From the IMG/VR virus record IMGVR_UViG_3300027503_000002: a stretch of DNA of 64,000 nt; one strand, 5' to 3'. Made by a program: the position numbers and the translations under genes. This DNA is from a virus. The notes below the pieces were generated by a model. It ran no database searches, was not told the origin of the DNA, and worked only from the letters and a program-made list of their open reading frames with translations. Shown here piece by piece: positions 2,846 to 60,465 of this stretch (position 1 is the stretch's first letter; each line of letters starts with the position of its first letter).

Positions 2846-3873
2846 TGAAAAAAGTAATCATTACAGGAGTTACTGGTCAGGATGGTAGTCATATGGCAGA
2901 TTACCTTTTAACTAACACTGATGTTCAAATTTTTGGTGCAGTTCGTCGTCTTAGTGTTTCCAACCATAAAAATATTAGCCATATTTCCGATCCAAGATTC
3001 AAGCTTATCGACCTTGATATTGGTGACCCAGAAAGCGTAAATAACGCGATATTCAAATACAAGCCGGATTATTTTATTAATTTAGCGGCAAACTCCTTTG
3101 TAGGGACAAGTTGGGAAATGCCAGTCAACCATATGCAAACCAACTGTATGGGAGTGCTTTATCAACTTGAGGCAATTAGAAAGTTTGTTCCAAACTGTCG
3201 CTACTACAACGCAGGCTCCTCAGAGGAATTTGGAGATGTTACCTTTAGCCCCCAAACAGAATTTCATCCACTTAGACCCAGAAGTCCATACGGAGCATCA
3301 AAAGCTGCCGCAAGACAAGTTGTAAAAGTATGGAGAGACTCTTACAATCTTTATGCAGTTCAAGGCTGGCTTTTTAATCACGAAGGAACTCGCAGAGGCT
3401 CAGAGTTTGTCACTAGAAAGATCACCAAGGGAGTTGCAAAAATTAAAAAGGCAATAGACTCAAATAACTTTATTGAGGCTATAAAGCTAGGCAATCTTGA
3501 GTCAAAGCGCGATTGGAGTGATGCTGAAGACTTTGTTCATGGTATTTGGCTGATGCTTAATCAGGAAAAGCCAAAGGACTATGTGCTTTCTTCTGACGAA
3601 ACTCATACTGTTAGAGAATTTGTAGAACTGTCTTTTGCTGCGGCTGGTATCGAAGGTCAATGGCTCGGCAACCGAGGAACCATCGAAGAAGTCTTTATAA
3701 ATAAGGAAAGCAGACTTCCTATGGTAATGATCGATCCAAAGTTCTTCCGCCCAGCTGAAGTCGAACTGCTTCTTGGCGATTCTACAATGGCCAGAAGTGA
3801 GCTTGGCTGGCGACCCAAGACAAGCTTCTTCCAGCTTGTTAAAAAGATGACGCTCAACGACCTTGCTCAATGA
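2845..3873 (+). CDS. gmd: GDP-mannose 4,6-dehydratase
   Basis: ITGVTGQDGS, SSEEFG, PRSPYGASK, LFNHEG.RRG.EFVTRKIT, RDW, FRPAEV.LL.GD motifs. Confidence 0.95.
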   Translation: MKKVIITGVTGQDGSHMADYLLTNTDVQIFGAVRRLSVSNHKNISHISDPRFKLIDLDIGDPESVNNAIFKYKPDYFINLAANSFVGTSWEMPVNHMQTNCMGVLYQLEAIRKFVPNCRYYNAGSSEEFGDVTFSPQTEFHPLRPRSPYGASKAAARQVVKVWRDSYNLYAVQGWLFNHEGTRRGSEFVTRKITKGVAKIKKAIDSNNFIEAIKLGNLESKRDWSDAEDFVHGIWLMLNQEKPKDYVLSSDETHTVREFVELSFAAAGIEGQWLGNRGTIEEVFINKESRLPMVMIDPKFFRPAEVELLLGDSTMARSELGWRPKTSFFQLVKKMTLNDLAQ

Positions 3874-57117: not shown

Positions 57118-57657
57118 GTGCAGCACATCTGTTTAAATTGCAAGACAGAGTTTGTTAACTCTGACAAACGAAGTAAGTTTTGTAAGCAATCCTGCGCTGC
57201 GGTTTACAACAACAAGCTTTTTCCAAAAAGGAAAAGGCTGCGTAAATGCAAGAATTGTGATAACCTTGTCAAATCTGGCCGAACTTATTGCGAGACCTGT
57301 GTTTCTAAAAAAATCCATTTTTGTAAAAACGGAATGATTAAAAATGGATTGATCGAGGACAGAACTCTTGAAGAAGAAGTTTTCTTAAAAAAGCACAGAG
57401 GCGCTAACAGATACGACCACATCAGACAGCACGCCCAGCGTGTAATGAAAGACGAAAAACGCGCCTGCCAGTGCGGTTACGACAAGCACGTTGAAGTTTG
57501 CCACATAAAAGCCATAAGGGACTTCGATTTAAAAACAAAAATAAAAGACATTAACTCAAAGGAGAATCTCGTTCTCCTATGCCCCAACTGCCACTGGGAG
57601 TTTGACAATGGACTTTTGACCCTAAAAAATGTTGGTAATTCGCAGAGCAACGCTTGA
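57118..57657 (+). CDS. HNH endonuclease with Zn-finger repeats
   Basis: CLNC, FCKQSC, C..C, HVEVCHIK...NL.LLCPNCHWEFD; directly after tRNA-Arg. Confidence 0.88.
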   Translation: MQHICLNCKTEFVNSDKRSKFCKQSCAAVYNNKLFPKRKRLRKCKNCDNLVKSGRTYCETCVSKKIHFCKNGMIKNGLIEDRTLEEEVFLKKHRGANRYDHIRQHAQRVMKDEKRACQCGYDKHVEVCHIKAIRDFDLKTKIKDINSKENLVLLCPNCHWEFDNGLLTLKNVGNSQSNA

Positions 57658-58123: not shown

Positions 58124-58348
58124 ATGTCTTACGTTCAATTAACTGAAGCCCAACTCTATGACCTTGGAAGTCGCGGTTTACCGTATGACGACAGGAATAT
58201 TCTGAGGCTTCATATCCTGCATCTTCGTCACGAACACGATATGAATGTTCGTGATATTGCGAAGAGGATGGGAATGAAAATGAAGACGGTACAAAAGTAT
58301 TTGAAGTCCGATTCTGTCGAATTGCAAAAGTTTAGACCTGAGTTTTAA
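58124..58348 (+). CDS. small HTH protein
   Basis: MNVRDIAKRMGM..KTVQKYL. Confidence 0.7.
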   Translation: MSYVQLTEAQLYDLGSRGLPYDDRNILRLHILHLRHEHDMNVRDIAKRMGMKMKTVQKYLKSDSVELQKFRPEF

Positions 58349-58354
58349 AATTTC

Positions 58355-58429
58355 GGTGCTATAGCTCAATGGTAGAGCAGCGTCCTTTTAAGTCGTTGGT
58401 TCTGGGTTCAAATCCCAGTGGCACCACCA
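58355..58429 (+). tRNA. tRNA-Lys(TTT)
   Basis: GGTGCTA/TGGCACC, anticodon loop CTTTTAA (one T:T mismatch in the stem), GGTTCAAATCC, ACCA. Confidence 0.9.
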
Positions 58430-58434
58430 ATTTT

Positions 58435-58545
58435 GGCGTAGGGCTAAGACGGTTCGATTCCGTCGTCATCTTGGCCGATGTTTAATAGCCGATATGGACA
58501 AGGCAATGCATCTGCCATCAAGGTTCGATTCCTTGCGCGCCATCA
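58435..58545 (+). ncRNA. tRNA-like five-armed RNA with two TTCGATT T-loops
   Basis: GGCGT/GCGCC closing stem; GGCTAAGA/TCTTGGCC arm carrying CGG-TTCGATT-CCG; TGTTTA/TGGACA; GGCA/TGCC; CAAGG-TTCGATT-CCTTG; ends A-TCA-ATT. Confidence 0.6.
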
Positions 58546-58571
58546 ATTCTCTTAATCAAGAAATAAATCAT

Positions 58572-58760
58572 ATGGAACACCCTCTATATTATGCCATTGA
58601 TTATGATCTTAATGTGATCAAGTTGGGCTATTTTGACAACTACCATCTTGCTTGTCTTTATGCTGAAAAAAAGGAGATTGAGTTTATGAAAATTTTCAAT
58701 CACGCTGAACTGGTTACTCTTTACAATAACATTGATGCTGCCACATCAGATTGGTCTTAA
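58572..58760 (+). CDS. hypothetical protein
   Basis: Start moved to ATG 58572 because the upstream part overlaps the ncRNA. Confidence 0.55.
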   Translation: MEHPLYYAIDYDLNVIKLGYFDNYHLACLYAEKKEIEFMKIFNHAELVTLYNNIDAATSDWS

Positions 58761-59095: not shown

Positions 59096-59434
59096 ATGAA
59101 GCAATGCCGCCGCTGCGGGACCATAAAAGAAATCGAACAGTTCCCATTCTTTTCTGGTCAGCAGACGGGGCGCAAAAACACCTGTACGGAATGCACGAAA
59201 GAGTTGTCTCGGTTAAGAGCAAAGCTCAAGACCGAGAATCCTCCACCAGCAGCGGGCGAATGCCCTATTTGCAGCACTCACACCGAAATCTGGATACTGG
59301 ATCACTGTCACTTCACGAATGAGTTTCGGGGCTACATCTGCAACAACTGCAATCTCGCGCTTGGCAGATTCAACGACGACGAAAAATTGTTGAGAAAAGC
59401 TATTGACTATTTGAACGGAAAAAATAGAGTGTAG
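59096..59434 (+). CDS. endonuclease VII-family (His-Me) nuclease
   Basis: C..C..C..C, CPIC, LDHCH....RG.IC..CN..LG.F.D....L..AI.YL. Confidence 0.88.
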   Translation: MKQCRRCGTIKEIEQFPFFSGQQTGRKNTCTECTKELSRLRAKLKTENPPPAAGECPICSTHTEIWILDHCHFTNEFRGYICNNCNLALGRFNDDEKLLRKAIDYLNGKNRV

Positions 59435-59440
59435 GTAAAT

Positions 59441-59517
59441 GGCCGTATAGACCAACCGGCAGAGTCAAGTCACTTAAAATGACTGTAGTGTGGGTTCGAA
59501 TCCCTCTGCGGCTACCA
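59441..59517 (+). tRNA. tRNA-Leu(TAA), short variable region
   Basis: GGCCGTA/TGCGGCT, AGTCA-CTTAAAA-TGACT, 5-nt variable region GTAGT, GGTTCGAATCC, ACCA. Confidence 0.88.
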
Positions 59518-60042: not shown

Positions 60043-60465
60043 ATGAGAGATACTGCCAAAATATCCTTCGCGCTATTCTTCTGCGTAGCAATTCTGTTCT
60101 CACTAATCTTTTCACAGGAGAAGCCAACGCCAACAACCGCAGCAGTAGTATCGCCGGACACTTACTCTGCTGTTGAAGGACAAGTGGTAGAAATGAGTGC
60201 GACTGCTGAAGGGGACACTCCACTGACCTTTCAGTGGTACAAGAAAGGGTTAACGGATATTTTGGTTGGCGTCGGTCCGACATACACCATCCAAAACGCC
60301 AGAGTTTCTGATACCGGCACCTACTACGTATCTGCAACAAATTCTATTGGAGTTGCCCAAAGTAACATCGTAACGCTTAACGTCTCTCCCGCCCCCACAA
60401 TCACAAACCCGCCGTCATTCATTTACATCGAAGCCCGCGACGACATTCGCCCAACATCATCGTGA
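60043..60465 (+). CDS. membrane-anchored immunoglobulin (I-set-like) domain protein
   Basis: Signal/TM segment, then G.TPLTFQWYK...YTI......DTGTYYV.ATNS.G. Confidence 0.85.
   Translation: MRDTAKISFALFFCVAILFSLIFSQEKPTPTTAAVVSPDTYSAVEGQVVEMSATAEGDTPLTFQWYKKGLTDILVGVGPTYTIQNARVSDTGTYYVSATNSIGVAQSNIVTLNVSPAPTITNPPSFIYIEARDDIRPTSS

Follow-up and report, generated by a model that had tools for sequence, protein, structure and literature searches.

A two-T-arm element in a freshwater phage tRNA cluster: a candidate gene for a non-decoding tRNA-like RNA

A 111-nt element (58435–58545, + strand), which begins 5 nt past tRNA-Lys(UUU) and is followed by AUU, is moderately likely to be a functional, discrete and selected gene for a processed non-decoding tRNA-like small RNA. 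In sequence comparisons no other unit of its tRNA cluster is as well conserved. The sequence features that an earlier note had listed for the element, read from the letters of the window only, are all present.

Locus and layout of the element

The window, the whole 64,000-nt stretch analysed, is taken from the minus strand of a 67,240-nt IMG/VR virus record that was estimated to be 46% complete and that holds a single copy of the element. The phage is an uncultured freshwater phage from riverine metagenomes and encodes rIIA and rIIB just upstream. No DNA-level relative was found in the cultured-phage collection, and the closest rIIA of a cultured phage is at most 32% identical to that of the window phage. 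The upstream neighbour of the element, tRNA-Lys(UUU) (58355–58429, + strand), was called by ARAGORN and by Rfam (RF00005, 72.3 bits). The spacer AUUUU (58430–58434, + strand) forms the 3' trailer of this tRNA and the 5' leader of the element, and a U-run stands directly 5' of G1 of the element in all five variants described below. Each of the four real tRNAs in the window has the end CCA-A(A)UUU, and the A-UCA-AUU end of the element echoes them, as the earlier note had observed.

Three ORFs lie among the tRNA genes: an HNH endonuclease-like ORF (57118–57657), a 74-aa HTH ORF (58124–58348) and an EndoVII-like ORF (59096–59434) that adjoins the element. The HNH and EndoVII-like ORFs are probably homing endonucleases. 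The tRNA alleles are strongly mosaic across relatives (tRNA-Arg of the window is 58–62% identical to those of the relatives), as would be expected from homing-driven cassette exchange. No tRNA-metabolism domain was found in the ORFs neighbouring the element, and TROVE, RtcB and a CCA-adding enzyme were not found in the 67-kb contig (46% complete). No candidate for a partner protein was found among the neighbouring ORFs and contig genes examined, and a scan for promoters and terminators returned background level only.

Several further features of the cluster were recorded. The tRNA-Leu(UAA) of the window (59441–59517) comprises only 77 nt, lacks the long variable arm and has a U·U mismatch in the T-stem; those of relatives have 85–88 nt and a long variable arm (L121, 15603–15690; L171, 8641–8726), and a short one like that of the window is found in L131 (8027–8102). 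It is either a leucine tRNA of class I shape or a decaying one. A tRNA-Ile(UAU) of 94 nt with a long extra arm is present in L175 (1955–2048, − strand), L179 (5360–5453) and L120 (10582–10675), where the window and L121 carry an allele of 77 nt; L120 has this different allele even though its rIIB is 100% identical to that of the window. Just 3' of the cluster, an ORF of 140 aa (60043–60465) contains an immunoglobulin-like domain (Pfam Ig_3, E 6e-10).

The element itself (all parts on the + strand) is closed by an acceptor-like stem, the 5' strand of which, GGCGU(A)G (58435–58441), pairs with the 3' strand CGCGCC (58536–58541) and leaves A6 bulged. A D-arm with G18 G19 is missing; its place is taken by arm 2 (58442–58476), a 35-nt arm composed of T-arm 1 (GACGG-UUCGAUU-CCGUC, 58448–58464), a GUCAUC segment and an outer stem GGCUAA/UUGGCC. 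Arm 3 (58479–58500) is a UGUUUA/UGGACA hairpin with a 10-nt loop that contains a conserved AGCCGA, and it is here that most of the variation is found. Arm 4 (58502–58516) is a GGCA/UGCC hairpin with a 7-nt loop that reads AUGCAUC in the window and GGGCA(U/A)C in relatives; this loop has no conserved U33 and is therefore no anticodon loop. As in a tRNA, T-arm 2 (CAAGG-UUCGAUU-CCUUG, 58519–58535) directly adjoins the closing stem at its 3' strand, and the stack formed by the two measures 11 bp with a bulged A, compared with a canonical 12 bp. The discriminator A, UCA and the AUU trailer (58542–58548) complete the element, and conservation stops at this point.

The presence of two T-arms is not a product of chance. 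A strict T-arm pattern matched five times in the 64-kb window, always on the + strand and within 1.5 kb; tRNAs account for three of the matches and the element for two. In dinucleotide-shuffled copies of the window the pattern was matched 0.4 times per 64 kb, and none of 300 copies had two matches within 120 nt. Since the shuffles do not give paired T-arms, the double T-arm of the element is taken to be real.

Homologues, substitution pattern and conservation

With rIIB as an anchor, 32 related viral loci were searched for the element. Copies identical to one another and 92% identical to that of the window were located right after tRNA-Lys in the L121, L123 and L150 contigs; more copies came from a pattern scan of metagenomes and were confirmed with covariance model R1. 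The resulting alignment (A6) holds five distinct variants, namely those of the window, of L175/L178/L179, of the L121 type, of L169 and of L171, and in all five the element lies between tRNA-Lys(UUU) and tRNA-Leu(UAA). No more distant member was found in further viral scans, in a genome-collection scan or in R1 searches of all fetched loci. Three other viral-contig patterns returned the same three contigs or chance T-arm matches only, the two matches of the genome-collection scan, in a Planctomycete and in a Streptomyces, were due to chance, and a broad two-T-loop pattern matched at more than 118 loci; among the matches listed, most were adjacent tRNAs and none was homologous. The known range of the element is one narrow clade of freshwater phages.

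Pairwise identity of the element among the five variants is 92–98%. In the same lineages it is 68–96% for tRNA-Lys, 65–100% for tRNA-Leu, 57–99% for tRNA-Ile and 58–97% for tRNA-Arg; between the window and L121, protein-coding DNA is 68–74% identical and the EndoVII-like ORF and tRNA-Leu that adjoin the element are about 70% identical. The conserved stretch runs from G1 to just past the AUU trailer, and both flanks may differ around it. In L175, where the element is 98% identical to that of the window, another tRNA-Lys allele (69%) abuts it and the alignment of the downstream DNA breaks off after 5 nt. A distance of 235 nt separates the element from tRNA-Lys in L171, and a different 85-nt stretch precedes the element in L169. 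L131, L126 and L128 have tRNA-Lys without the element. In L131, tRNA-Lys and the downstream EndoVII-like gene are kept and exactly the element unit is missing, the junction reading CCAAUU|GAAAU against CCAAUU-UU-[element]-CC(A/G)AUU|GAAAU elsewhere. The sharp edges, the exchanged flanks and the clean absence from L131 together show that it is the element, with bounds like those of a tRNA gene, that is conserved, gained and lost as a unit.

Two observations were made on L169 itself. Within 2909–3070 (− strand), its tRNA-Lys(UUU) is atypical, scoring 40.8 bits with Rfam, being missed by ARAGORN and having the T-loop AGCGUUA. The 85-nt stretch that follows this tRNA, also uncalled, ends in ACCA-AUUUU directly before the element and is possibly another tRNA-like unit.

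Taken as a single sequence, the element has an unremarkable fold stability (z = −1.3). The minimum-energy fold of the window sequence departs in the middle from the layout of the earlier note, which is costlier by ∼4 kcal/mol; the L121 homologue gives the five-arm layout unaided as its minimum-energy fold. Two pairings were compared. Model A is that of the earlier note, and model B pairs 8–10 with 31–33 and 37–48 with 57–67, resulting in a GGC/GUC pairing in arm 2 and in the inclusion of arm 3 in a longer hairpin (58471–58501). Across the five variants, standard pairs occupy 98% of the pair cells in model A and 100% in model B, at similar energy. The RNAalifold consensus pairs arms 2 and 3 differently from model A; its 3' half was rejected, since T-arm 2 is disrupted in it and three substitutions are at odds with it. 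The closing stem, T-arms 1 and 2 and the GGCA/UGCC hairpin are the only parts of the predicted fold that are robust, arms 2 and 3 fitting two pairings equally.

The 108-nt body contains 11 variable columns among the five variants, of which eight are unpaired in model A; the unpaired sites lie in the loops of arms 3 and 4, at R57 of T-loop 2 and at the discriminator. Changes in stems are limited to U5·G103 to U-A (in L171), U49·G62 to C-G, one U·G to A·G and the loss of one base in a GGCC run. This last, a one-base deletion at 58473–58476 in L171, is the sole departure from invariance in arm 2 (58442–58476), and that of T-arm 2 is R57, G to A, in L121. The earlier note had proposed that homologues be checked for covariation. 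In the five-variant alignment none was detected above shuffles, and no significant compensatory change was found; the lone double change, at 51:59, converts A-U to G-C, and the same pair is A·C in two variants. Nucleotides 1–40 are 100% invariant, while the real tRNAs carry compensatory stem changes at equal divergence. Such invariance goes beyond structural need, and it suggests that a sequence-specific constraint acts on nucleotides 1–40 in addition to structure.

The main rival to a functional gene, improbable in our estimate but the strongest of those considered, is a pseudo-tRNA of chimeric origin, in which the 3' third of one tRNA would have come to lie inside the D-arm region of another; the functionless cassette would have spread recently, for instance within tracts co-converted with the homing-endonuclease-like genes. 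Arm 2 does resemble a variable loop, a T-arm and a 7-nt acceptor strand, and deletion of nucleotides 8–42 leaves 76 nt, the length of a tRNA. The HNH and EndoVII-like ORFs of the cluster, the mosaic tRNA alleles and the lack of covariation (five variants) fit such an origin too, and recent exchange could explain part of the high identity in a narrow clade with a mosaic tRNA cluster. When the element was compared by BLAST with 1,500 tRNAs of the fetched loci, only matches of T-arm length were returned, so that no parent tRNA can be named. The adjacent EndoVII-like ORF, at ∼70% identity against 92% for the element, argues against recent co-conversion of the two. The variants differ by up to 8%, and their changes spare stems or keep pairs; both flanks are replaceable with the unit intact, and two lineages retain an intact CCA. 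The case of two decayed tRNA fragments, which the earlier note had named as fatal to its reading, is opposed by the standing of the element as the best-conserved cluster unit, by its sharp edges and by changes that are confined to loops or keep pairs.

A role in cis is less probable still. The element might be a 3' structure that directs or protects the processing of the tRNA-Lys precursor, or a site in the DNA, for instance one targeted by a homing endonuclease or a hotspot of recombination; homing inside a tRNA cluster has a precedent in T4 SegB (PMC2330249). Full invariance of nucleotides 1–40, more than structure demands, would be accounted for in this way, as would the distance of 5 nt from tRNA-Lys in most variants and the proximity of endonuclease-like ORFs. 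It is contradicted by the separation of 235 nt in L171 and the intervening 85-nt stretch in L169, by the lineages in which tRNA-Lys stands without the element, and by two canonical T-arms, a closing stem and a CCA end that would be superfluous for a DNA site. A gene for a tRNA-like small RNA remains the preferred reading, and its product is considered next.

Decoding capacity, maturation and mode of action

No established family was recognized, in agreement with the earlier note. On the window, ARAGORN called four tRNAs only, leaving the element uncalled and finding no tmRNA, and Rfam at gathering thresholds returned the same four tRNAs and nothing on the element; no tRNA, tmRNA or other family call was thus obtained from either program. 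RF00005 did not match the element at the gathering score or at E values up to 10, and a permissive Rfam scan of 58300–58700 (E up to 10) gave no tRNA-clan match on the element and chance-level matches only. A tmRNA identity was rejected, the tmRNA mode of ARAGORN being empty at relaxed thresholds and a G3:U70 pair being missing; the tmRNA_permuted model reached 13 bits (E 1.4) with a match mostly over the end of tRNA-Lys. A circularly permuted tRNA, defined as a T-arm, a loop-closed acceptor helix and D and anticodon arms, in which the two acceptor strands complement each other across the loop, was likewise rejected: after T-arm 1 just a 4-bp CAUC/GAUG helix is possible, and CGCGCC pairs with the 5' end of the element.

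Judged from its sequence, the element is non-decoding, as had been proposed in the earlier note. No loop has a canonical anticodon layout or a conserved U33-NNN-R37: the candidate anticodon loops read A(U/C)AGCCGA(U/C)A and (AU/GG)GCA(U/A)C, and U33 is absent or not conserved. The D-loop GG is missing and the discriminator varies (A in three variants, G in two). Of the three types of 3' end, two have a mutated CCA; the triplet is CCA in two variants (L169 and L171), UCA in two (the window and L175) and CCG in one (L121), the ends of the homologues reading A-CCG-AUU in L121 and G-CCA-AUU in L169 and L171.

These same features bear on whether the element could be a chargeable, decoding tRNA of extreme shape, class II-like or allo-tRNA-like with a rebuilt D-arm, which we regard as very improbable. 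Its top half and CCA end are those of a tRNA, arm 4 is placed like the long variable arm of class II, and the clade has other odd tRNAs (the 94-nt tRNA-Ile(UAU) and the 77-nt tRNA-Leu(UAA)); irregular tRNAs that are overlooked by finders, the allo-tRNAs, do exist. The candidate anticodon loop would be the 7-nt YAGCCGA, which requires the 51:59 pair. Against this, that pair is A·C in two variants and no loop has U33; the discriminator alternates between A and G, CCA is mutated in two of three types of 3' end and the D-loop GG is missing. ARAGORN produced a call only at heavily relaxed thresholds (-ps60/-ps70), and the 'tRNA-Ile(aat) with a 15-nt intron' that it then reported is nonsensical, with RF00005 silent up to E 10.

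A non-decoding RNA could nevertheless be matured like a tRNA. The top half of the element is tRNA-like: an acceptor-like stem stacks on a canonical T-arm, the discriminator is a purine and the 3' end reads CCA or nearly so. The U-rich leader and AUU trailer of the element are the same punctuation as that of the adjacent tRNAs. The top half of a tRNA is the unit recognized by RNase P, the 3'-end and CCA machinery, TrmA and TruB, and the latter two enzymes act on bare T-arm hairpins. The tRNA-like top half and the shared leader and trailer make tRNA-like maturation from a Lys-element precursor the most economical inference. The element would be co-transcribed with tRNA-Lys, cut by RNase P at G1 and given its 3' end by the tRNA 3'-end machinery; the CCA-adding enzyme of the host would mend ends that read UCA or CCG, TrmA and TruB would probably modify both T-loops and the matured element would build up as a stable RNA. 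The true CCA end in two homologues fits such maturation. That the element and tRNA-Lys(UUU) share one transcript is probable. One metatranscriptome contig (depth about 4) spans tRNA-Ile, the HTH ORF, tRNA-Lys and the first 40 nt of the element; contigs from RNA libraries are low-depth assemblies with possible DNA carry-over, cover ends at 58474 and the gap at 58475–58651 is uninterpretable.

If the element is functional, its most likely mode of action, which we advance tentatively, is the sequence-specific binding of a tRNA-binding protein through the invariant 5' half, the RNA serving as a mimic or sponge and not in translation. An unlikely reading, of which the earlier note had raised a form, is that of a tRNA-shaped decoy, the invariant T-arm-capped arm of which would trap a host tRNA-directed factor during infection. 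Such a decoy might be aimed at an anti-phage system, by way of its anticodon or T-loop nuclease, or at an enzyme that modifies or processes tRNAs.

Comparison with known RNAs and significance

The closest known kind, overlooked in the earlier note, is that of the stable RNAs C and D of phage T4. Species 1 RNA (rnaC, 139 nt) and species 2 RNA (rnaD, 119 nt) still have no assigned roles (PMC3014915, PMC9697503). Like the element, both lie within a phage tRNA cluster just after a tRNA and behind a short spacer; rnaD and rnaC come directly after tRNA-Arg, spaced by 1 and 6 nt, respectively. In rnaC an acceptor-like closing stem abuts a perfect CCGGG-UUCGAAU-CCCGG T-arm and two non-tRNA hairpins are present besides, so that it resembles the element in having a closing stem and T-arm together with non-tRNA hairpins for the D and anticodon arms. 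It differs in being longer and in having one T-arm instead of two. In the T4 region model R1 matched neither rnaC nor rnaD, its matches there overlapping tRNA genes only, and T4 and the phage of the element are unrelated (the rIIA of the latter shares no more than 32% identity with that of any cultured phage). The element is therefore best described as an analogue, not a homologue, of T4 rnaC.

Other known systems are less close. Class II tRNAs (RF00005) share with the element the closing stem and T-arm, a discriminator, a CCA or near-CCA end, the leader and trailer and an extra hairpin at the site of the long variable arm; the element differs in lacking a D-arm and a 7-nt U33 loop and in having an acceptor stem of 6 bp plus a bulge. 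YrlA and similar bacterial Y RNA-like mimics are also non-decoding, contain a tRNA-like module with a T-arm and are in some cases phage-encoded (PMC4201824). In YrlA, however, the RNA ends form the stem that binds Ro60/Rsr and the acceptor-like stem is loop-closed (PMC4201824), whereas in the element the ends close the acceptor-like stem. Membership of the YrlA/Y RNA group found no support in a TROVE/Rsr or RtcB gene in the contig (46% complete) or in an Rfam match up to E 10.

The earlier note had also drawn an analogy to paired T-loops that recognize tRNA elbows. In T-box stem I, RNase P and the L1 stalk, two T-loop motifs of 5 nt interlock at one helix end (PMC4919913). The element likewise has two T-loop motifs, but they are predicted to belong to full T-arm hairpins on separate arms, and the analogy is weak. 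That the element is an RNA that binds tRNA elbows, its two T-loops docking as in T-box stem I or RNase P, is the least likely of the explanations considered: the loops are identical (UUCGAUU) and double T-loop modules do recognize elbows (PMC4919913), but the known motifs interdigitate at one helix end, those of the element cap arms ∼55 nt apart and no specifier or catalytic part is present. Kissing of the two T-loops through UCGA/UCGA was also examined and found to be unsupported, the change of G57 to A in L121 affecting one loop only.

The element has in common with defence-countering phage tRNAs its position in a phage tRNA cluster and in the neighbourhood of tRNA-Lys(UUU); the tRNA-Lys of phage T5, for example, counters the tRNA-cleaving defence PARIS (PMC11464382). 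This case illustrates why the surroundings of tRNA-Lys genes are of interest, but it does not speak for a decoy role of the element. Those tRNAs are working replacements for the cleaved host tRNA, whereas the element has no anticodon loop like that of tRNA-Lys. An element of tRNA shape could plausibly engage tRNA-directed host factors.

Further units with two orphan T-arms were noticed in unrelated phage contigs. In L003 (at ∼3609), L028 and L042, on the minus strand, a tRNA (Ser or Phe) is followed by units of ∼85 nt that are uncalled by ARAGORN and have no sequence kinship to the element. Double-T-arm units may recur in phage tRNA clusters.

Since T4, phage tRNA clusters have been known to encode stable non-decoding tRNA-like RNAs, none of which has an assigned function. 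By analogy, the element adds a two-T-arm form to the kind represented by T4 RNA C, and it does so as a compact and sharp-edged case, with two full T-arms, a tRNA-type end and an invariant 5' portion of 40 nt. That this portion is so constrained where the real tRNAs were exchanged or diverged suggests a sequence-specific partner, and this would make the RNA a tractable bait for pull-down. Should the element be just a processed by-product, it would still mark a class that is overlooked by tRNA finders and Rfam. A partner that acted in defence or in tRNA maturation would show that phage tRNA islands hold RNA mimics beside spare tRNAs. If the decoy reading is true, the element would be the first RNA-only counter-measure to tRNA-targeting immunity and would offer a handle on the 50-year-old question of the role of T4 RNAs C and D.
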